Shown: in pieces, positions 2,649 to 64,000 of the stretch
How the letters are laid out: every line of letters begins with the position of its first letter
How positions within the stretch are numbered: the stretch's first letter is position 1
Origin: Bacteroidota bacterium
Lineage (GTDB): Bacteria > Bacteroidota > Bacteroidia > Chitinophagales > Chitinophagaceae
Direction: 5' to 3'
Length of the DNA: 64,000 bases
NCBI GenBank assembly: GCA_016868455.1
Contig: VGGV01000013.1
Span: 11,040 to 75,039 of the forward strand
Made by a program: the position numbers and the translations under genes
Notes under the pieces: model-generated
Told to the model about the DNA's origin: nothing
The model's input: the letters and a program-made list of their open reading frames with translations, nothing else
Databases searched by the model: none

Positions 2649-3728
2649 TCAAAATGCCGGTTTATAAATTTCTATCTTGTCGGCCAGTAGTTTTTGTTCT
2701 CCTGTTTTTATAACGGCCGGTAATATTGGCGCCGTCAATCCATTACCAATTGACAATTGCCTGTTCACAAGCACCCTCGCTTCATCCCAGATCTCTTCAG
2801 CAATGAATGATTGCAGCAATCCTGCCCCTCCTTCCACCAGTACACTTTGAAGTTGCAGTTGGTGCAGGGCATTTAAAATTTGGCGAACAAGGCTTACATC
2901 ATGTGTTACCTGGTAATACCTCACCCCAACCCTCCCCATAAATGGAGCGGGGGGAGGCCTCTCTATTTGTTCGGTATGAACTTTTGTATTGAATATGATG
3001 GTTGGCGTTTGCTGGTTAAATATTTTCAGCGATTCTGGTAATTTCAGTTCCATATCCACCACCAGCCGCACCGGTGAATTGCCTGGCCATAACCTTGTTG
3101 TGAGTTCCGGATCATCCAGTAATGCGGTATTTGATCCCACCAGTATAGCCGCTTCTTCGCTCCGCCACTGGTGTACCAGCCGGTTGCTGTATTCATTACT
3201 GATCAGCAGCCTTTCCGAACTCCCGGCTGAAATTTTCCCATCAGCAGTCTGCGCCCACTTCAGTATTACATAAGGCCGGTGTTTTGTATGAAAAGTAAAG
3301 AAGCGTTTGTTCAGTTCTTTGCATTCATTTTCCAGTTCTCCCATCGTAACTTCTACGCCTGCCGCTTTTAGTTTTTCAATTCCCTTTCCGTCCACCTCTT
3401 TAAAAGGGTCACGGCAACCGATTACAACTTTGGGAATTTTATACTGAATAATCAGGTCGGTGCAGGGCGGTGTTTTTCCAAAATGGGCACAGGGTTCCAG
3501 TGATATATATAATACAGAACCGGAAATAAGTTCTTTGTCAGCTTGCATTACTGATTCAATACAATTCACTTCTGCATGCGGCCCGCCATATTGCTGATGC
3601 CATCCTTCGCCGATAATACGGTTTTCATGTACCAGTACGGCTCCCACCATCGGGTTGGGCGCCACATAGCCCGCCCCGAGTTTGGCCAGCTCAAGACAGC
3701 GTTGCATATATTGCTCGTCAATGGTCAA
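2649..3728 (-). CDS. ribD: Bifunctional riboflavin biosynthesis protein RibD (pyrimidine deaminase / uracil reductase)
   Basis: N-terminal CMP/dCMP deaminase zinc motifs (HAEVNCI ... LEPCAHFGKTPPC). The C-terminal RibD reductase domain has RPYVILKWAQTADGKI and SVLVEGG. Confidence 0.95.
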   Translation of the reverse strand: MTIDEQYMQRCLELAKLGAGYVAPNPMVGAVLVHENRIIGEGWHQQYGGPHAEVNCIESVMQADKELISGSVLYISLEPCAHFGKTPPCTDLIIQYKIPKVVIGCRDPFKEVDGKGIEKLKAAGVEVTMGELENECKELNKRFFTFHTKHRPYVILKWAQTADGKISAGSSERLLISNEYSNRLVHQWRSEEAAILVGSNTALLDDPELTTRLWPGNSPVRLVVDMELKLPESLKIFNQQTPTIIFNTKVHTEQIERPPPAPFMGRVGVRYYQVTHDVSLVRQILNALHQLQLQSVLVEGGAGLLQSFIAEEIWDEARVLVNRQLSIGNGLTAPILPAVIKTGEQKLLADKIEIYKPAF

Positions 3729-4693: not shown

Positions 4694-4766
4694 CAGTCTG
4701 TAGTTTGTAGTTCGAAGTCACCATCCGTTATAAGAATATTTTTCAAGAAATACATATAAGGCAGAC

Positions 4767-4820
4767 ATTGTCGCCTATTGTCCTTTGCCAATTGTCTATT
4801 GTCTATTGTCTATTGCCTAT
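4767..4820. repeat. Degenerate tandem heptamer (ATTGTCT)n microsatellite
   Basis: attgtcgcct attgtccttt gcca attgtct attgtct attgtct attgcct, read directly in the prmC/exbD convergent spacer. Confidence 0.7.
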
Positions 4821-19556: not shown

Positions 19557-20354
19557 TTAAAATCGGATAATGAAATGCTGTTTCTCCTGAAATTCCCTGC
19601 GAAAAAAGACAATACCGATAAAAAACAGGTCAATGGAGCAGCGCACGGCCGGGTGGTCCTTAATGGCTTTCCATGCCTCTTCCATCTCCCTGCTCCAGTA
19701 AATATCGTCAAAAACCATTATGGAATCATTACCGGCCTTCTGCAAGAGTGTATGAAAATACCGCTCAGTCGGCAACTGCCGGTGATTGCCGTCAATAAAG
19801 GCAAAATCAACCAAAGGTAATTTATCGAGTACAGCAGAAAGGGTATCATCAAAATTCCCTTTCGCAATTTCAATATTGGCAAGAGACAGTTTCCGGAAGT
19901 TTTGCCCGGCAACATCTGCTATTGCTGCTGCACCTTCCATGGTTACTATTTTAGCCTCCGGCCTGGCCAGTGAAAGGTATGAGGTGGTAATGCCCAGCGA
20001 AGTTCCCATCTCTATTATGGTTGACGGCTGGTAATACCTTACCATCCGGAAAAGGAATTGCCCGTATTTTTTTGATTTGGCTGTATTTCGGGCAATGGAT
20101 TTGATACTGCGCTGATGCTTTTTCAAAAAGGCTGAACCGGCGCCAAAATCCTCCACTGCAAACATCCGTGAATCCCTCAGCAATTGCCTGCGCAATCCTT
20201 CAACCATTCCGTAAGCCGGATACGGGGCTTTATCATTGAGTACTTTGCTAATAAAATCAAATACAAACGGGGAATGTGTTCCATGGCCCCTGCCATTTGA
20301 AGAAGAAAGATAGTAAGCAAGATATTTGCGGGCCAGTTGCCATCCGGAGTACAT
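19557..20354 (-). CDS. Class I SAM-dependent methyltransferase (O-methyltransferase family 3-like)
   Basis: IIEMGTSLGITTSY (motif I) and FAFIDGNH, typical of Methyltransf_24/CCoAOMT-like proteins. Confidence 0.7.
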   Translation of the reverse strand: MYSGWQLARKYLAYYLSSSNGRGHGTHSPFVFDFISKVLNDKAPYPAYGMVEGLRRQLLRDSRMFAVEDFGAGSAFLKKHQRSIKSIARNTAKSKKYGQFLFRMVRYYQPSTIIEMGTSLGITTSYLSLARPEAKIVTMEGAAAIADVAGQNFRKLSLANIEIAKGNFDDTLSAVLDKLPLVDFAFIDGNHRQLPTERYFHTLLQKAGNDSIMVFDDIYWSREMEEAWKAIKDHPAVRCSIDLFFIGIVFFRREFQEKQHFIIRF

Positions 20355-51409: not shown

Positions 51410-53098
51410 CTATTTTCCGGCAAAGAATTTCTCCCGGATCATTTTATCTTCTCCGTACACATCATCATAAAAAACAAGGTTTCCGCTCCGGGCCTCACTG
51501 GTAATGTAGCGGATATAAACAGGCATTTTCTTTTTTACCATAATATGCCGTTTTATTTTTTGATGAAGCCAGGTTTTCAGTGAGTCGGCCATGTGGTAGC
51601 TTCCGGATGAATGAAGGCTGTCGTTGCGGAGGATATAGTAAGCCAGCTTTTGCCATTCCTGTACTCTTACACAACCATGGCTGAGCGACCGCATAGCATT
51701 TCCAAACAGGTAGCGCTGGTTAGTATCATGCAGGTAAACTGAATATTTATTATCAAAATGAAATTTGAGCACCCCAAGGGCATTGGCATCACCGCTGCCC
51801 TGTACAATCCTGTAAGGCACCCCCTTGTTGTATTTTGACCAGTCAACAGAGTAAGGGTCAACTTCATTGCCATCTTTGTCAAGCAGGCTGAAACCCTTGC
51901 GGGCCAGGTAATCTGGATTTTTTTTCACGGCCGGTAAAATTTCCTTTGTTACGATACTGGGCGGCGGCACCCATTGCGGGTAGGTGATGAGTTGGGAAAT
52001 AGACCCGTTTAACAAAGGCGTTCGGGTTTTAGCTTTGCCGCAAATAATCCTGGAAGAGAACTTAACTGCGGTATCCTCCACAACCTCCAGGTTGTTTGAT
52101 GCCGCATTCACCCAAATATATCTGGATGGCATTTCAGGCGGCAGTTTTTTGTACTTATCGAGGCTGATGGCAACCCGGATAAACTTCTCTGCGTCCGAAA
52201 GGTTAAGCATACGAATGGTGCCTTCTCCGGCCCGACCGTCTACCAAAAGCCCTTTTTCGTTCTGAAATTTTTTGACGGCCTCTGCCAGTTGTGCCGAATC
52301 GGCCATTACACTATCAAAAACAATATAGCCTCCTTCAAACAACCTTTTTTGCAAAGCAATCTTATAACCGGGATCATTTTTTGCCGGTACCCGGGTATGT
52401 TCCCGGAAATCGGCCTGTTGCAAAAATTTCAGAATGCCTTTCTTTAGCTGCTGATACCCCCGATGCCGGGGCTCGAGTACTTGTACCTGCGCTGTCATTG
52501 AACCTTGTTGTTGCAGGGTATTAAACTGCTGCAGGAAAAAGTCGCCGGTAAGCAGGGTATCCTTATTAAGAGTAATGCTGTCATCCGGCAGGCGGCCCAG
52601 TTTGATGTCTTTGAGGATTTGAACAAATGCATCGGTAAGCATCACATCCGATTTTGCCCAGATCATCGCATCTTTTTTTGCTGTCTTATTCAAACTGTCG
52701 GCTTCAAGCAGCCTGTGGATCATGAACAGTTCATTGGCATGATAATCCTGGGAGAACAACCCATATAATTTTGACTCCCGGATAAAGCCGAAAAGTGAGT
52801 CAGCCTGCCGTTTCCAGTTCCCCTGCTCAGACCACAGCGGAGTATTTCCATTTTTTTCGTACAGATACTTACAGAATGCAGGTTGATTTAGGTGCAACCT
52901 GCTGTCGGTTCTACTTCCTCCGCCTGCTGCAGTTTGCTGCAGTAACTTGCTGATAAAGCTTTTTGTTTTTTGCTGAAGCTCTTCCGGTGTGTCTGCAATA
53001 TGCTCAGATTGGGTTCGTTTACTCCTGCAGGCATGCACTAATACCAGGCATACAGTAATACCTGCATACAATAGGTGCCTGGCTCTTTTTCTTCTCAT
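51410..53098 (-). CDS. L,D-transpeptidase (YkuD/ErfK domain; YcbB-like large form)
   Basis: A peptidoglycan-binding-like repeat (AVKKFQNEKGLLVDGRAGEGT) and the catalytic block YLHDTN...LSHGCVRV (HxnSxGC(I/V)R motif). Confidence 0.85.
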   Translation of the reverse strand: MRRKRARHLLYAGITVCLVLVHACRSKRTQSEHIADTPEELQQKTKSFISKLLQQTAAGGGSRTDSRLHLNQPAFCKYLYEKNGNTPLWSEQGNWKRQADSLFGFIRESKLYGLFSQDYHANELFMIHRLLEADSLNKTAKKDAMIWAKSDVMLTDAFVQILKDIKLGRLPDDSITLNKDTLLTGDFFLQQFNTLQQQGSMTAQVQVLEPRHRGYQQLKKGILKFLQQADFREHTRVPAKNDPGYKIALQKRLFEGGYIVFDSVMADSAQLAEAVKKFQNEKGLLVDGRAGEGTIRMLNLSDAEKFIRVAISLDKYKKLPPEMPSRYIWVNAASNNLEVVEDTAVKFSSRIICGKAKTRTPLLNGSISQLITYPQWVPPPSIVTKEILPAVKKNPDYLARKGFSLLDKDGNEVDPYSVDWSKYNKGVPYRIVQGSGDANALGVLKFHFDNKYSVYLHDTNQRYLFGNAMRSLSHGCVRVQEWQKLAYYILRNDSLHSSGSYHMADSLKTWLHQKIKRHIMVKKKMPVYIRYITSEARSGNLVFYDDVYGEDKMIREKFFAGK

Positions 53099-59142: not shown

Positions 59143-60231
59143 TTACCCGTCTATCACTTTCTTCTGATGATTGATACTTTCCATATGTACTGCATCAAAG
59201 TACCGGGTGATGAATTCTTTGCTTAATCCCACCTTATCTCCCCGGGCCGTTGCCCTTTCAATTACCTCATTCCAGCGGCTGGTTTGTAAAATAGTAATGT
59301 TGTTCTCCTTTTTGTATTCACCAATCTGTTCGGCTATTTTCATCCTCCGGCCCAACATCTGTATCAATTCTTCATCCAGCTGATTGATCTGTTGCCGCAG
59401 TCTTTCCAGTGCCGCATGATATTCTTCTGAATTTACATCTTCCCTCCTCCAGATGATACTGTTCAGCATTTCTGCCAAACGTTCCGGCGTCACCTGCTGC
59501 TTCGCATCGCTCCATGCATTATCAGGATCCATATGGCTTTCAATCATCAGTCCGTCATAATCCAGGTCAATTGCTTTTTGCATTGTATCCAGCAAAGTAT
59601 CCCGGCGGCCACAAATATGCGAAGGGTCATTTATGAAGGGCATACCGGGATGTTTCAGCTTCATATCAATGGCCAGGTGCCACATGGGAGCATTTCGGTA
59701 TTCAGTATTACCATATGAACTGAAACCACGGTGTATCAGCCCAATCTTTTTTACACCGGCTCTCGCCACTCTTTCCACGGCCCCTGCCCACAGTTCCAGG
59801 TCGGGGTTGATGGGATTCTTTATCATGACCGGCACATCCACGCCCCGCAGCGCATCCGCCACTTCCTGAACACTAAAGGGATTTACCGTGGTTCTTGCGC
59901 CAATCCAGAGTACATCCACATCAAAGGTGAGGGCATCCTGCACCTGCTTGGCTGTGGCTACTTCTATTGTTGTGGGTAACCCGGTTAATTTCTTCGCCTG
60001 CTGCAACCATGACAAACCTTTTGCGCCAACCCCTTCAAACATACCCGGCTTGGTACGGGGTTTCCAGATTCCTGCCCGCAGCATATCAACCATACCTGTC
60101 GCTGCCAGACGTTGTGCCGTGGCAACCACCTGCTCTTCCGTTTCAGCGCTGCAGGGCCCGCTGATGATAAGCGGACATTTAGCCCAAACCACCTCTGTTT
60201 GCCCTTTTATCGCCTGTTCTGTTGTTTGCAT
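59143..60231 (-). CDS. Bifunctional DAHP synthase (type I-beta, KDO8PS-like) / chorismate mutase (AroQ, C-terminal)
   Basis: The N-terminal ~270 aa resemble I-beta DAHPS (IISGPCSAE, GIWKPRT.P..F.G, DPSH). The C-terminal ~90 aa form a CM_2 helix bundle (LRQQINQLDEELIQMLGRRMKIAEQIGEYK). Confidence 0.88.
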   Translation of the reverse strand: MQTTEQAIKGQTEVVWAKCPLIISGPCSAETEEQVVATAQRLAATGMVDMLRAGIWKPRTKPGMFEGVGAKGLSWLQQAKKLTGLPTTIEVATAKQVQDALTFDVDVLWIGARTTVNPFSVQEVADALRGVDVPVMIKNPINPDLELWAGAVERVARAGVKKIGLIHRGFSSYGNTEYRNAPMWHLAIDMKLKHPGMPFINDPSHICGRRDTLLDTMQKAIDLDYDGLMIESHMDPDNAWSDAKQQVTPERLAEMLNSIIWRREDVNSEEYHAALERLRQQINQLDEELIQMLGRRMKIAEQIGEYKKENNITILQTSRWNEVIERATARGDKVGLSKEFITRYFDAVHMESINHQKKVIDG

Positions 60232-60236
60232 CCGTA

Positions 60237-60244
60237 CAAATTTA
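60237..60244 (-). promoter_or_regulatory. Candidate -7 box TAAATTTG only 5 nt upstream of the DAHPS/CM ATG
   Basis: Matches TAnnTTTG on the minus strand. The spacing would give a leaderless or near-leaderless mRNA. Confidence 0.3.
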
Positions 60245-60379
60245 TGTTATTATGTTGTCATCTTTAGTTCCCTGGGCATCGTCCCTTGCGTCGCACACTT
60301 CATCGTTCTGTTTGCTGCTCAGCTATACTTCAACGATTACATTCTGTTTTCAAATTTTCTTTCATTTGTATTTTATGTT

Positions 60380-60467
60380 GAACCCCTCCGGGGTTCTTAA
60401 AAACATTTCATTCATTGTTTACCCCGGATTAAAATCCGGGGCAATTGAGATATCGCCCCGCCGGGGC
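60380..60467. repeat. Cluster of three GC-rich hairpins (GAACCCC-TCC-GGGGTTC; CCCCGGA-TTAAAA-TCCGGGG; GCCCC-GCC-GGGGC)
   Basis: Read directly at 60380-60396, 60422-41 and 60455-67. None has a strong U-tract. Confidence 0.75.
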
Positions 60468-60669
60468 TGAGTTCACAATCACTCATCATCTTCCTTTTTT
60501 TCTTGCACTGCCATGTCCTTTATGCCCGCTTAACTTTTCTTCACATTTATGAACGATATTGGAGTTTGAGTCTTTAACTTCTTCAAAGTAAACATCCTGT
60601 ATATTATCAATAATCCTTGTTTTATATACAATCCTTTCATCTGCAGAAGATTCATGCCCAACAATTTGT

Positions 60670-61341
60670 TCATACTTTATCTTCCGTGCTTTCAAAACCG
60701 GTCGAAGCCAGTTCAAAAATCGCTTTCTCTCCCTTTTCTTTTTCCAGCACCGTATTTGCCAGGGCAAAGGATGTAATATGGGAGATGTGACTTACATAGG
60801 CCGCATGCAGGTCATGTGCATTGGCCTCCATCTCCAGCAGGTGCATGCCAATTTTTTGATACATGTGCTTCACCCAATCCAGCGCATCTGCATCACTTTC
60901 TTCAGCATTGCAAATGATCACTGCTTTGTTTTCAAATGCATTTCTTACCGCTGCTTCAGGGCCGCTGTATTCCGTTCCCCACATCGGGTGAGTGGCCACA
61001 TATCTGCCTCGCTTTGGATGACCTTTTACCACATCAATCAGTTGCGATTTAGTAGAACCTGAATCCAGCACTATCTGCCTGTCTGCTTTATCCAGTATTA
61101 CCGGCAGCAGGGAAACCAAAGCATCCACCGGTATTGCCAGTATTATTACATCCGACTGCTGTATAGCTTCATCCAGCGGCATAATTTCATCTACCAGTTC
61201 CAGTTCCGCTGCTTTCTTTGCATGTTCCTCATTTACATCCACACCAATCAGTTTTGAAGACAGTTTCTTCTCATGAAGCTGAATAGCCAGCGAGCCGCCA
61301 ATCAGTCCGACTCCAATTATTGTAATTCTTTTTCGTTCCAT
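60670..61341 (-). pseudogene. tyrA: Prephenate dehydrogenase, apparently truncated at the C-terminus (223 aa, ends ...ELASTGFESTEDKV*)
   Basis: The N-terminus ITIIGVGLIGGSLA and the core HDLHAAYVSHISHITSFALA are clear TyrA. Homologs I know continue after GFxST with RLAKSSP.MW and about 55 more residues, which are missing here. It may still be expressed as a CDS. Confidence 0.65.
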
Positions 61342-61347
61342 ATTTTT

Positions 61348-61458
61348 TCAGGGCTAAAGCCCGGTTAAGTGTTGCTTCATACACCGGCCTTTGCCATAGG
61401 CATCCCGGCGGGGAAGGCCAGAGTTAATAACATGATCAGCTACGGGCTTTAGCCCTGA
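61348..61458. repeat. Perfect 16-bp inverted repeat TCAGGGCTAAAGCCCG / CGGGCTTTAGCCCTGA bracketing the aminotransferase-tyrA junction
   Basis: Arms at 61348-61363 (5 nt upstream of the tyrA ATG) and 61443-61458 (inside the last codons of the aminotransferase, encoding RAKAR). An inner stem GGCCTT...AAGGCC is also present. Confidence 0.8.
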
Positions 61459-62602
61459 TACGCTGCAAAGCCTCATCAATTTTTTCTTCCTTATTGCACA
61501 AGCTCACCCTTATATATGTTTCACCGGCGCTGCCGACTATTCCGCCGGGAGTGATAAATACATTTTTACTATACAGCACTTTGTCACTTAGTTGATACCC
61601 GTTTTTATATTTTTGGGGTACGGCTGCCCAAACGAATAAACCTGCCTGCCCTGTTGAATAAAGGCAACCTAACACATCCAGCAGCTCAAATACTTTTTTT
61701 CTTCTTGCTTTATATACTTTATTTACTTCATCATGCCATTCCTTTCCCAAAGTCAGCGCTTGGGCAGCAGCCAACTGCACAGGCAAGAACATGCCGCTGT
61801 CCATATTGCTTTTGAAACGCAGCACTTCCTCTATTCTTTCTTTTGCCCCGGACAGCATACCCACCCTCCAGCCGGCCATATTATGACTTTTGCTGAGTGA
61901 GTTCAGTTCAATCACAATGTTTTTTGCGCCCTCAATTGATAAAAGGCTAAGCGGATTTTCATTAAGTATAAAACTGTACGGGTTATCATGAACGACCATG
62001 ATATTATGCTTCTTACCAAACGCTACAATTTTTTCAAATAATTCTTTTGAAGGCAGTTGCCCCGTTGGCATCTGCGGATAGTTGACAACCATGAGTTTTA
62101 CCTTCTTCAGCTTTCGCTTTTCCAGCTTATTAAAATCCGGTTCATAATTATTCTTTGCCCGGAGTTTATATTCCACACATTTTCCTCCCGCCAGTTTTAC
62201 AGCTGCACTGTAAGTCGGGTATCCGGGATTGGGCACCAGCGCTTCATCACCTTCATTCAGATACGTCATACACATATGCATAATACCTTCCTTGCTGCCA
62301 ATCAGCGGCAATATTTCGGTGTCAGCATTTAAATCCACATTATACCATTTCTTATACCAGTCGCTCATCGCCCTGCGCAGTACCGGCGAACCCTTGTAGG
62401 ACTGGTAAGCATGCACATCAGGTTTTGCAGATTCTTCCTGCAATACTTTTATCACATCCGGGTGCGGGGGCAGGTCGGGACTGCCAATACCGAGATTGAT
62501 AATATTCTTTCCCTGTTTATTCAGCTCATCAATCTCCCGCAGCTTTTGTGAGAAATAATACTCGCCAATCCCTTTCAGTCTTTCAGCTGTTTTTATTTCC
62601 AT
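61436..62602 (-). CDS. Class I/II PLP-dependent aminotransferase (probable aromatic/prephenate aminotransferase, from context)
   Basis: Fold-type I motifs with the PLP lysine in NSLSKSHNMAGWRVG. It sits between pheA and tyrA. Confidence 0.85.
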   Translation of the reverse strand: MEIKTAERLKGIGEYYFSQKLREIDELNKQGKNIINLGIGSPDLPPHPDVIKVLQEESAKPDVHAYQSYKGSPVLRRAMSDWYKKWYNVDLNADTEILPLIGSKEGIMHMCMTYLNEGDEALVPNPGYPTYSAAVKLAGGKCVEYKLRAKNNYEPDFNKLEKRKLKKVKLMVVNYPQMPTGQLPSKELFEKIVAFGKKHNIMVVHDNPYSFILNENPLSLLSIEGAKNIVIELNSLSKSHNMAGWRVGMLSGAKERIEEVLRFKSNMDSGMFLPVQLAAAQALTLGKEWHDEVNKVYKARRKKVFELLDVLGCLYSTGQAGLFVWAAVPQKYKNGYQLSDKVLYSKNVFITPGGIVGSAGETYIRVSLCNKEEKIDEALQRIRAKARS

Positions 62603-63423
62603 AAGCCTCTTTTATATATTCCGTAAATTTTTACTGCTTCCGTCAATGGCCTTATTTCCTCCATTACGTTGTTAAACTGTTCCACCGTATCAAATTCCAT
62701 ATCCGCATGAAAAGCGTATTTAAAATCTGTGCCCGGAATGGGAAAGCTCTGCAGTTTGCTCAGGTTGACACCGCCTTCGGCAATTTTGGCCAGCACCCTG
62801 GCTAAGCTTCCCCTTGAATAGTTGGTGTGAAAAGTAACCGATGCTTTGTCAGCATTTTCTACCGGCACTGCCCTGTCTTCTTTTTGCAGCATAAGGAACC
62901 GGGTGTAGTTGTTCTTCATAGTATGGATGTTTGGTGCCATTACTTCAAGTCCGTACAGTTCCGCTGCCAGTTTGCTGGCTATGGCAGCAATATGTTTGCT
63001 TTTATGCTGGTGAATATGCTGTGCACTCAGAGCAGTATCATCTGTCTCCACCAGTTTCCATTTATACTTGTCCAGGAACTCATAGCATTGCTGCAACGCC
63101 ATGGTATGTGAGTGTACTTCCCTGATGTCTTCCAGTTTTACTCCCTGATTCACCAGCAGGTTTTGCCGTATCTGCAGATAAATTTCGCCGGCAATTTTCA
63201 GGCTGCTTTTATGCAGCAGGTTATAATTAGGTAAAATACTTCCCGCAATGGAGTTCTCAATGGCCATCACCCCGCCATCGCTTTCTTTGCTATTGGAAGC
63301 CCCCCGTACCGCCTCTTTAAATGTATCGCAGGGAATTACAGTGACTTTTTTCCCAAAGAATAGCCGGGCTGCCAACTGATGGAAGCTGCCTTCGTAGCCC
63401 TGTATAGATATTTTTTTAACCAT
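62593..63423 (-). CDS. pheA: Prephenate dehydratase (PDT + ACT domains)
   Basis: ISIQGYEGSFHQLAA, the TRF motif (NNYTRFLML), and a C-terminal ACT domain with the ESRP-equivalent region (LSKLQSFPIPG). Confidence 0.93.
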   Translation of the reverse strand: MVKKISIQGYEGSFHQLAARLFFGKKVTVIPCDTFKEAVRGASNSKESDGGVMAIENSIAGSILPNYNLLHKSSLKIAGEIYLQIRQNLLVNQGVKLEDIREVHSHTMALQQCYEFLDKYKWKLVETDDTALSAQHIHQHKSKHIAAIASKLAAELYGLEVMAPNIHTMKNNYTRFLMLQKEDRAVPVENADKASVTFHTNYSRGSLARVLAKIAEGGVNLSKLQSFPIPGTDFKYAFHADMEFDTVEQFNNVMEEIRPLTEAVKIYGIYKRGLWK

Positions 63424-63427
63424 GTAT

Positions 63428-63461
63428 AAAATAAAAATCCCGGCCTTTTCTGACCGGGATT
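63428..63461 (-). terminator. Attenuator terminator (segments 3:4): AATCCCGG-N10-CCGGGATT + TTTTTATTTT, ending 4-5 nt before the pheA ATG
   Basis: Read on the minus strand. See the first finding for the alternative pairings. Confidence 0.75.
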
Positions 63462-63484
63462 CTTATGCTGATTTTTAGTTGTTT

Positions 63485-63574
63485 TTATTTGCCTGTCAGC
63501 AAAAGCATACCCGGCCTTTTTCCAAAAAAGAAATAATAAAAGTAATAGCCCCGGTATGCTTTAATGAACGTCAT
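63485..63574 (-). CDS. Putative aromatic-operon leader peptide MTFIKAYRGYYFYYFFFGKRPGMLLLTGK (29 aa)
   Basis: My own translation; the ORF is below the track cut-off. Codons 10-17 are eight consecutive Tyr/Phe codons. It is preceded by a consensus-like promoter and followed by antiterminator/terminator structures and then pheA. Confidence 0.7.
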   Translation of the reverse strand: MTFIKAYRGYYFYYFFFGKRPGMLLLTGK

Positions 63575-63578
63575 AAAA

Positions 63579-63609
63579 CAAATGTAGTTTTTGATCCGCT
63601 TACTTCCAA
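63579..63609 (-). promoter_or_regulatory. Candidate promoter of the leader/pheA transcript: TTG-20 nt-TACATTTG
   Basis: On the minus strand, TACATTTG (63579-63586) matches TAnnTTTG, with TTG at 63607-63609. The -33/-7 spacing is the same as in the rpsJ candidate. The leader ATG starts 4 nt after the box. Confidence 0.5.
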
Positions 63610-63687
63610 CAGGAATCCATAAATGATTTTCTCCGTCCTCCGGTTTCGGCGTCCCTGCCCGCCATCAATTATTTAATAATAATGTGA

Positions 63688-64000
63688 TCAGGCGGGATTC
63701 ATACGGATCTTTCTGCCACGGTAGTTCTTCCCATCAATAGCTTTTATCATTTTTTTAGCCGCTGACGAATCCACTTCTACCCAGCTGTTCATCTCCTTCA
63801 TATCAATTTTGCCAAGTACCTCCTTTCTCAGGTCACTCATATCCAGTATGAATTGCAGAAAGCTGGCTTTGTAAAAACCATCCTTAGTACCAAGGTTTAC
63901 AAACAAGCGCCGGTAATTACCTTCTCCGGATCTTCTTCCCCTTGTATCCCGGCCGTTACCTCTTTCCGGCTTCTCTCCCCGGCGATCTCCTCTTCTCTCT
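63688..64000 (-). CDS. DEAD-box RNA helicase, C-terminal fragment (Arg/Gly-rich linker + DbpA RNA-binding domain); the N-terminus lies beyond the right edge
   Basis: The track ORF 63688-63906 begins at an internal TTG. The frame stays open to the window edge (…ERRGDRRGEKPERGNGRDTRGRRSGEGNYRRLFVNLGTKDGF…IKAIDGKNYRGRKIRMN), which is a typical DbpA-domain tail. Confidence 0.8.
   Translation of the reverse strand, partial: ERRGDRRGEKPERGNGRDTRGRRSGEGNYRRLFVNLGTKDGFYKASFLQFILDMSDLRKEVLGKIDMKEMNSWVEVDSSAAKKMIKAIDGKNYRGRKIRMNPA

Follow-up and report, generated by a model that had tools for sequence, protein, structure and literature searches.

A 64-kb window of a Bacteroidota genome (64,000 nt of contig VGGV01000013.1, family Chitinophagaceae) carries, on its minus strand and directly upstream of pheA, what is very probably a ribosome-mediated leader-peptide transcription attenuator. 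Judging from comparison with related loci and from fold modelling, this element would adjust transcription of the pheA-aminotransferase-tyrA operon to the supply of charged tRNA-Phe and tRNA-Tyr. It combines a short open reading frame (ORF) that is biased toward Phe and Tyr codons and bears a coding signature, an intrinsic terminator (hairpin 3:4), an antiterminator (2:3) that excludes the terminator, and a further hairpin (1:2) that holds the regulatory codons where a stalled ribosome would block segment 1 and not segment 2. A first-pass annotation of the same DNA had proposed the promoter, the 29-codon ORF with its YYFYYFFF run, segments 1 to 4, the terminator and a motif that occurs twice, AAAAGGCCGGG (63510-63520 and 63439-63449), and all of them lie on the minus strand where it had placed them. 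The parts of the element are as follows.

63607..63609, minus strand: -33 element TTG of a Bacteroidota sigma-ABfr-type promoter; TTG lies 17-23 nt 5' of the -7 box in 57/62 loci
63579..63586, minus strand: -7 element TACATTTG (consensus TAnnTTTG / TAHHTTTG); box in 62/62 loci
63574, minus strand: predicted transcription start, the A of the leader AUG, placed from the box spacing
63572-63574, minus strand: leader ATG, read from the sequence
63485..63574, minus strand: leader-peptide ORF, 29 codons plus TAA, MTFIKAYRGYYFYYFFFGKRPGMLLLTGK, from the ORF listing; homologue in 77/77 relatives
63548..63562, minus strand: segment 1 (AAAGCATACCGGGGC; begins AAAGCATACCGG), 5' arm of the anti-antiterminator or putative pause hairpin 1:2, from the minimum free energy (MFE) fold
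63524..63547, minus strand: regulatory run YYFYYFFF (TAT TAC TTT TAT TAT TTC TTT TTT), codons 10-17, in the loop of hairpin 1:2
63496..63516, minus strand: segment 2 (GGCCGGGTATGCTTTTGCTGA), partner of segment 1 or segment 3, from fold and alignment
63452..63471, minus strand: segment 3 (TCAGCATAAGAATCCCGGTC), 3' arm of the antiterminator and 5' arm of the terminator, from 2:3 and 3:4 covariation
63431..63445, minus strand: segment 4 (GGCCGGGATTTTTAT), 3' arm of the intrinsic terminator, from the MFE fold; pairs with 63452-63466
63428..63437, minus strand: terminator U-tract TTTTTATTTT, ending 5 nt before the pheA ATG; the U-rich tail is conserved in the alignment of related loci
63421-63423, minus strand: pheA ATG, read from the sequence

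The run of eight Phe/Tyr codons is the only one of at least six in all six frames of the window, longer than any other by three codons, and mononucleotide shuffles of the window gave a mean of 0.28 runs of at least five. Relatives were gathered by a PheA scan that kept one genome per species, which yielded 80 loci from Chitinophagaceae metagenome-assembled genomes, Terrimonas and Lacibacter at 75-83% identity; conservation was counted in the 77 relatives with enough upstream DNA, and the alignment of these loci, A1, holds 78 sequences. A homologous mini-ORF was found in 77/77 relatives, with the typical peptide MTxTKAYFGFYFYYFFFGKRPGMLLLK. Among the carriers are two cultivable species, Terrimonas ferruginea DSM 30193 (L071) and T. 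pollutisoli (L028). The median leader contains 6 Phe and 4 Tyr codons, its central region is 87% aromatic, and the longest Phe/Tyr run spans 7-8 codons in 58/78 leaders. Codon choice favors UUU over UUC and UAU over UAC, the same preference as in the genes of the operon.

Alignment A1 also carries a reading-frame signature. Gap runs within the ORF are multiples of 3 in 311/312 cases and gaps 3' of the stop codon have arbitrary lengths; the length of the ORF block modulo 3 is constant in 77/78 sequences; and the sense frame is open in 77/78, with none of the other five frames staying open in the same way. The stop codon lies 2-11 nt after segment 2, at exactly 8 nt in 59/78 sequences. Together these observations indicate, indirectly, that the leader ORF is translated or otherwise under coding constraint. 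Two antisense ORFs on the plus strand (63465-63536 and 63479-63622) were rejected, as their frames are broken in 23-78 of the 78 sequences.

The RNA of this region folds far better than expected by chance. The 162-nt transcript reached -48.9 kcal/mol, against -28.4 +/- 3.6 kcal/mol in 200 dinucleotide shuffles (z = -5.7, 0/200 as good), and its MFE structure consists of hairpin 1:2, enclosing the aromatic codons, and the terminator, a 15-bp stem (63431-63445 with 63452-63466) capped by the loop AGAAAA. When segment 4 was left out, the long-range 2:3 helix formed in 78/78 sequences with a median of 18 bp, and shuffling segment 3 in this setting gave z-scores of -5.3 to -6.8. Across the sequences the three helices are of near-equal strength, with median free energies of -18.9 kcal/mol for 1:2, -22.4 kcal/mol for 2:3 and -22.3 kcal/mol for 3:4.

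Both helices that compete for segment 3 covary. For the 3:4 terminator, 96.1% of alignment cells were paired, 8/13 pairs showed compensatory change, 54 cells had changed on both sides, and shuffles were as good in 0/500 trials. For the 2:3 antiterminator, 92.0% of cells were paired, 7/17 pairs showed compensatory change, and shuffles were as good in 0-3 of 500; sliding the partner columns as a control lowered pairing to only 19-52%. RNAalifold applied to A1 independently predicted the terminator and the UGUUGA/UCAACA part of 2:3, in which the window itself has UGCUGA/UCAGCA, a compensatory change from the consensus. In some loci the terminator core has become CCTCCG/CGGAGG or CCCCCGG/CCGGGGG, and segment 2 has changed in step. 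The first-pass annotation had named three checks on its proposal that can now be answered. An aromatic mini-ORF with a terminator does recur upstream of pheA in the relatives, the energies of 2:3 and 3:4 are indeed balanced, and covariation across segments 1-4 was borne out for 2:3 and 3:4 but is weak for 1:2.

The promoter is tied closely to the start codon. In the window it reads TTG, a 20-nt spacer, TACATTTG, four nucleotides (TTTT) and then the leader ATG, which agrees, as far as sequence can tell, with the sigma-ABfr consensus of a TAnnTTTG (TAHHTTTG) -7 element and, some 19-21 nt farther upstream, a -33 TTG or TTTG. Counts were made in the 62 related loci with at least 45 nt of upstream DNA, using the box pattern TA[not G][not G]TTTG. 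The distance from the -33 TTG to the -7 box is mostly 19-20 nt, and the gap from the box to the first in-frame ATG is 4 nt in 32 loci, 6 nt in 5 and 7 nt in 21. The earlier suggestion that the promoter spacing implies a near-leaderless ORF is therefore matched by a conserved geometry, in which 4 or 7 nt separate the box from the ATG in 53/62 loci.

In Flavobacterium johnsoniae the -7 element lies at -12 to -5, 4 or 5 nt from the transcription start site (PMC6847099), and Bacteroides promoters share a TAnnTTTG-type consensus (PMC7366714). Because the 4-nt gap seen here matches the F. johnsoniae spacing, we predict that transcription starts at the A of the leader AUG. We lean slightly toward a leader mRNA that is truly leaderless, and loci of the 7-nt class would carry a predicted 5' untranslated region (UTR) of 2-3 nt. 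Leaders exceed 10 nt on 87% of F. johnsoniae transcripts (PMC6847099), and about 3.7% of 5' UTRs in Bacteroides thetaiotaomicron are shorter than 10 nt (PMC7366714). The conserved fusion of promoter and start codon is notable because such short 5' UTRs are rare in Bacteroidota.

Based on this arrangement, we infer where transcription starts, where the ribosome stalls, in which order the RNA folds and how the operon responds. The mRNA would begin at or beside the leader AUG, from the sigma-ABfr-type promoter, and a ribosome would translate the 29-codon leader while RNA polymerase makes segments 2 to 4. When Phe or Tyr is scarce, the ribosome would stall in the eight-codon run between segments 1 and 2, covering segment 1 and leaving segment 2 free. 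Segment 2 would then take segment 3 once that is made, as an antiterminator of about 16-18 bp; no terminator would form, and the polymerase would enter pheA. When both amino acids are plentiful, the ribosome would arrive at the stop codon 8 nt past segment 2, cover the 3' half of that segment and abut segment 3, which would pair with segment 4 and end transcription at the U-tract 5 nt before pheA. An untranslated leader would form 1:2 and 3:4 and would be terminated as well. Expression of pheA needs read-through because the terminator abuts the gene, and the U-tract ends so close to the pheA ATG that a separate promoter for the gene would not fit in. The classical logic of exclusive 1:2, 2:3 and 3:4 pairings, proposed in the first-pass annotation, is supported by the mini-ORF in every relative, the covariation of 2:3 and 3:4, the near-equal energies and the placement of the run.

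We modelled the ribosome as a 30-nt footprint on transcripts truncated before segment 4, using 78 sequences. With the modelled stall at the first or middle codon of the run, the antiterminator core was paired in 78/78 sequences; with the stall at the last codon of the run, the footprint starts to cover segment 2 and the core was paired in 39/78. Once the modelled ribosome reaches the stop codon, it buries the 3' half of segment 2 and its footprint ends where segment 3 starts. Folding with masked footprints, which the first-pass annotation had put forward as a check, was informative on these truncated transcripts but not at full length, where the terminator persists at all mask positions; the full-length equilibrium fold was dropped as a discriminating test.

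Several results weigh against the attenuator as proposed. A ribosome placed at the stop codon leaves the GGCCGGG half of segment 2 exposed, and this half pairs with segment 3 in 66/78 equilibrium folds, so a steric or kinetic argument is required. Once segment 4 is present the terminator wins at equilibrium even with segment 1 masked, which means that the switch must be kinetic. Without a ribosome, equilibrium folding of the transcript before segment 4 favors 2:3 over 1:2 in 74/78 sequences, and default termination therefore relies on 1:2 forming first. On our analysis, control has to be kinetic and steric, with folding in the order of synthesis, 1:2 first, and with pairing around the ribosome disfavored; for trpL, kinetic control by the order of folding is accepted. 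To our knowledge, transcription-translation coupling is unstudied in Bacteroidota.

Two further points concern helix 1:2 and the 5' end of the mRNA. RNAalifold on A1 did not predict hairpin 1:2, and its covariation was tested with a hand-derived column structure. Its cells were paired at 80.3% (shuffles as good for percent paired in 0/500) and 4/18 pairs showed compensatory change, but its covariation was no better than in shuffles (39-275 of 500 as good). Most changes in 1:2 are one-sided, and the register shifts between lineages, which partly explains why there is little covariation. Upstream of the leader, the stretch from the helicase stop (63688) to the leader promoter (63587-63688, minus strand) showed no terminator-like hairpin, so transcription may read in from the helicase gene and give the leader a 5' extension instead of a leaderless start.

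This last point would also suit an account in which the region is the 3' end of the helicase transcript joined to a 5' hairpin that stabilizes pheA mRNA, and the ORF arises incidentally from a T-rich spacer. The helicase is upstream and co-oriented in 54/75 related loci, ending about 76 nt before the leader ATG. In the other 21/75 loci, where a different gene lies upstream, the promoter box, leader and terminator are still kept, so that the promoter moves together with the leader. The coding signature, the 2:3 covariation and a run of eight Phe/Tyr codons unique in the window are left unexplained, and we regard this as the least probable of the alternatives, hardly worth entertaining. The mini-ORF might instead encode an independent, trans-acting small protein that is hydrophobic and rich in aromatic residues, served by its own promoter and terminator, with pheA expressed by leakage or from elsewhere and the pairings incidental. 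In favor of this, conservation of the peptide is strong and extends to its non-aromatic residues (K-A-Y-F-G ... K-R-P-G-M-L-L-L-K), the ORF has a promoter and a terminator of its own, and a trans-acting leader peptide, peTrpL, has been reported (PMC7298713). However, the conserved non-aromatic residues coincide exactly with segments 1 and 2, and we therefore explain them by RNA pairing; 5 nt, and no promoter, separate the terminator from the pheA ATG; the ORF is always directly 5' of pheA (77/77 relatives and, with different peptides of the same Phe/Tyr bias, 7/9 distant lineages); and covariation between segments 2 and 3 would have no role. We consider a separate small protein very improbable.

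About as improbable is an attenuator whose terminator and antiterminator are driven by a protein or ligand (a TRAP-like protein, a riboswitch or a T-box), with the ORF having no part in sensing. The alternative between the two helices is real, any effector could in principle drive it, and in Bacillus TRAP and T-boxes act on aromatic genes. Against this, neither the 64-kb window nor 11 further loci, related or more distant, gave a hit to any Rfam family at its gathering score, and in 63200-64000 even a cutoff of E <= 10 brought up no T-box or riboswitch. Without translation, nothing accounts for indels that keep the frame, a sense frame that stays open and a stop codon at a fixed position; and no feature is more conserved than the Phe/Tyr run, unpaired as it is, which reappears between unrelated flanks in distant lineages. 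Leader translation might also act through Rho-dependent polarity or mRNA stability in place of the intrinsic terminator switch. Translating a leader ORF can alter how readily Rho gains access, and equilibrium folding alone does not discriminate the states; yet the intrinsic terminator is strong, covaries, ends in a U-tract and is present in every locus, and the antiterminator sequesters exactly its 5' arm, an arrangement needless for a Rho mechanism. The probability that we assign to it is smaller still than for a protein or ligand effector.

We classify the element as an uncurated attenuator of the classical type, conserved in the family, lying outside the curated RNA families and having analogues in distant lineages. 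Like pheL-pheA, trpL, hisL, thrL, leuL and ilvL of E. coli, it places a short ORF with regulatory codons upstream of a biosynthetic operon. As in the enterobacterial attenuators, four segments would form exclusive 1:2, 2:3 and 3:4 pairings, the last of them an intrinsic terminator immediately 5' of the first structural gene, and tRNA charging would be sensed through the position of the ribosome. It would also resemble thrL, which senses Thr and Ile, and ilvL, which senses Ile, Leu and Val, in sensing more than one amino acid. Unlike E. coli pheL, which has Phe codons only, this leader mixes Tyr and Phe codons, about 4 and 6; unlike pheL-type leaders, its ORF covers both segment 1 and segment 2, with the stop 8 nt past segment 2; and unlike enterobacterial leaders, it has a Bacteroidota -33/-7 promoter and an mRNA predicted to be leaderless, lacking a Shine-Dalgarno sequence. 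Leaderless mRNAs are common in Actinobacteria, where leaderless leader-ORF attenuators include the mycobacterial polycysteine small ORFs (sORFs) and the Corynebacterium trp, ilvB and leuA leaders. Shared with these would be a leader ORF at the 5' end of the transcript, loading of the first ribosome on an AUG at the 5' terminus, and the sensing of amino acid supply by a run of codons, but phylum and promoter type differ. The joint sensing of Tyr and Phe and the predicted leaderless start would be the two distinctive features of our element.

Permissive Rfam searches returned sub-threshold architectural look-alikes (Thr_leader, Phe_leader, MicC and others). Thr_leader (RF00506) scored 26.3 bits (E = 0.013) and Phe_leader (RF01859) 17.5 bits (E = 4.2), each against a gathering score of 55, and these matches reflect a generic hairpin-plus-terminator architecture, not membership. 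Bacteroid-trp serves trp operons; its model (RF01692) had no match at E <= 10 in 63200-64000 and none at the gathering score anywhere in the window. In this respect our element differs from Bacteroid-trp, with which, as with the Bacteroides pheL, it shares the phylum, a cis-regulatory leader before an aromatic operon and the status of a computational prediction.

The literature that we searched contained no dedicated description of a Phe/Tyr attenuator of this kind in Bacteroidota. Vitreschak and colleagues are said to have predicted attenuators in Bacteroidetes/Chlorobi in 2004. The terms Bacteroid, pheA, aromatic, Cytophaga and Flavobacter do not occur in Naville & Gautheret 2010. Gurvich et al. 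2010 say in one sentence that 'Bacteriodes ... potentially use a pheL gene' (PMC3082878), and our comparison with that gene rests on this single mention, which describes no sequence, structure or Tyr codons. Weinberg 2010 gives the Bacteroid-trp motif as a Bacteroidetes cis-regulatory candidate (PMC2864571), and sORFs 'reminiscent of leader peptides' were noted in 5' UTRs of B. thetaiotaomicron (PMC7366714). The earlier statement that experimentally characterised cases are essentially lacking in Bacteroidota stands, but there are predictions, namely the Bacteroides pheL and Bacteroid-trp.

For breadth, we searched representatives of clusters at 50% identity and then their contigs, which gave nine pheA lineages, all metagenomic, at 45-68% identity. 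In 7/9 of them, a mini-ORF mixing Phe and Tyr codons (in some with Trp) and a hairpin/U-tract terminator lie upstream of pheA, and the peptides are non-identical.

L087: leader MKITNAFTGFFYFSYFRNRPGSLC; terminator; TAnnTTTG 7 nt before the ATG
L085: leader MNSNHSTFAGFYFWYFYFCEMR (Trp codons too; 2833-2901); terminator; TAAGTTTG 4 nt before the ATG
L084: leader MKSSNISYWSFEWFFQT (Trp codons too; 2876-2929); terminator; TATATTTG 4 nt before the ATG
L088: leader MRNFGYYFGFYYFFFFSKGESRVSCINL; terminator
L089: leader MLRPGYFFGFYYRYAQP; terminator; GC-rich
L090: leader MKKINTYYSFSFFFFYLIRINGRP; terminator 4 nt before the ATG
L091: leader MLASNYNFYFFAFYYFFGVPKGGD; terminator
L086: leader ambiguous; no clean terminator
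L082/L083 (identical): no leader ORF or terminator in the 118-nt intergenic region (L082 2883-3000), which is shared with a divergent ligA

Each of the seven leaders contains both Phe and Tyr codons, a combination that fits the operon because both amino acids are made there from prephenate. The Trp codons of L084 and L085 hint that some lineages may sense all three aromatic amino acids; the L084 operon consists of just pheA and DAHP synthase/chorismate mutase. A TAnnTTTG box lies 4-7 nt before the leader ATG in three of these lineages, L084, L085 and L087. Since L082/L083 have no leader, the attenuator is not universal, and these loci offer a natural control for its loss or for never having gained it. 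Their operon is nonetheless pheA-aminotransferase-tyrA-DAHP synthase.

The fusion of promoter and start codon, with the -7 box ending exactly 4 nt before the AUG, may be a designed feature of Bacteroidota aromatic attenuators, which, with true leaderless translation and mixed Tyr and Phe (and in part Trp) runs, would form a phylum-wide, uncurated class; we offer this idea tentatively and would sooner doubt it than assert it. If it is true, a ribosome would load on the 5'-terminal AUG as soon as this leaves RNA polymerase, and transcription and translation would be synchronized without a Shine-Dalgarno sequence. It would then offer the first concrete way into the study of transcription-translation coupling in Bacteroidota.

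Demonstrations of leader-peptide attenuation are essentially confined to Proteobacteria and a few Gram-positive bacteria. Bacteroidota initiate without Shine-Dalgarno guidance, their sigma factor is divergent, and their regulation at the RNA level is poorly understood. The mechanism itself will not surprise specialists. The element offers a clean and easily mutated test system, as a 165-nt cassette with its regulatory codons in an unpaired loop and three helices of near-equal strength, and it could serve as a test bed for ribosome-RNA polymerase coupling in Bacteroidota and for leaderless initiation in the service of coupling. It also provides an annotation rule for a small ORF plus regulatory RNA that Rfam models miss. 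For the Chitinophagaceae, it would give an account of joint Phe/Tyr control of a shared aromatic operon, with a putatively analogous form in 7/9 sampled distant lineages.

The first-pass annotation had described a pheA-aminotransferase-tyrA operon following a helicase gene. Pfam confirmed this context, with the upstream gene encoding the C-terminus of a DbpA-type helicase on the minus strand, and with one correction, namely that tyrA is truncated at its 3' end. The genes are as follows.

62593..63423, minus strand: pheA (prephenate dehydratase), first regulated gene; Pfam PF00800, E = 6.8e-58
61436..62602, minus strand: class I/II aminotransferase, second gene, overlapping the end of pheA; Pfam PF00155
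60670..61341, minus strand: tyrA (prephenate dehydrogenase), third gene, 3'-truncated here; Pfam PDH_N and partial PDH_C

After tyrA, Pfam places DAHP synthase/chorismate mutase, DHQ synthase and EPSP synthase. The tyrA product of the window has 223 aa, against 283-312 aa in relatives. It ends in ...ASTGFEST followed by EDKV and the stop codon, where relatives run on as ...GFESTVRLAKSNPAMWVPIF...RIIK, and the lost C-terminal part (about 60 residues) is encoded nowhere in the 64-kb window, which was searched throughout. In its place are about 440 nt of unrelated sequence with the GC-rich hairpins CAGCCCCGGCGGGGC, CCCCGGATTTTAATCCGGGG and ACCCCGGAGGGGTT (60232-61341, minus strand). An independent Logan contig, L081, also gives a 223-aa tyrA call and has a leader region identical to that of the window. 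The truncated tyrA could be a pseudogene or an insertion remnant. The argument that a mixed Tyr and Phe run fits an operon with both pheA and tyrA, made in the first-pass annotation, is valid for the lineage and not strictly for this copy.

A -7-type box, TAAATTTG (60237-60244, minus strand), ends 5 nt before the ATG of DAHP synthase/chorismate mutase (60229-60231), which suggests that a further promoter may lie inside the operon and give rise to another mRNA with little or no leader. With such a promoter, the downstream shikimate genes may depend on more than the attenuator alone. A comparable layout of box plus ATG precedes a 265-aa ORF starting at 20354, minus strand. A scan of the window for further mini-ORFs with a -7 box and an ATG found no second attenuator; a 32-aa candidate at 52107 was rejected, lying inside a 562-aa ORF.

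Finally, about 15-17 related loci carry an insert of 100-180 nt with G/C-rich hairpins (e.g. CCCCTCCCAAGGAGGGG, CCCCCTTTAGGGGG) and a conserved GAAAAGCGAGGTnAGTGCG core. It sits between the attenuator terminator and pheA, for example in L010, L020 and L062, and the window is without it. In L028, insert-like sequence (3411-3480, 4727-4800) precedes the aminotransferase and tyrA genes and gives them apparent N-terminal extensions of the form MK..S.K.SGSS.SK..E.VASP.GG. From its sequence, the insert looks like a repeated intergenic element.

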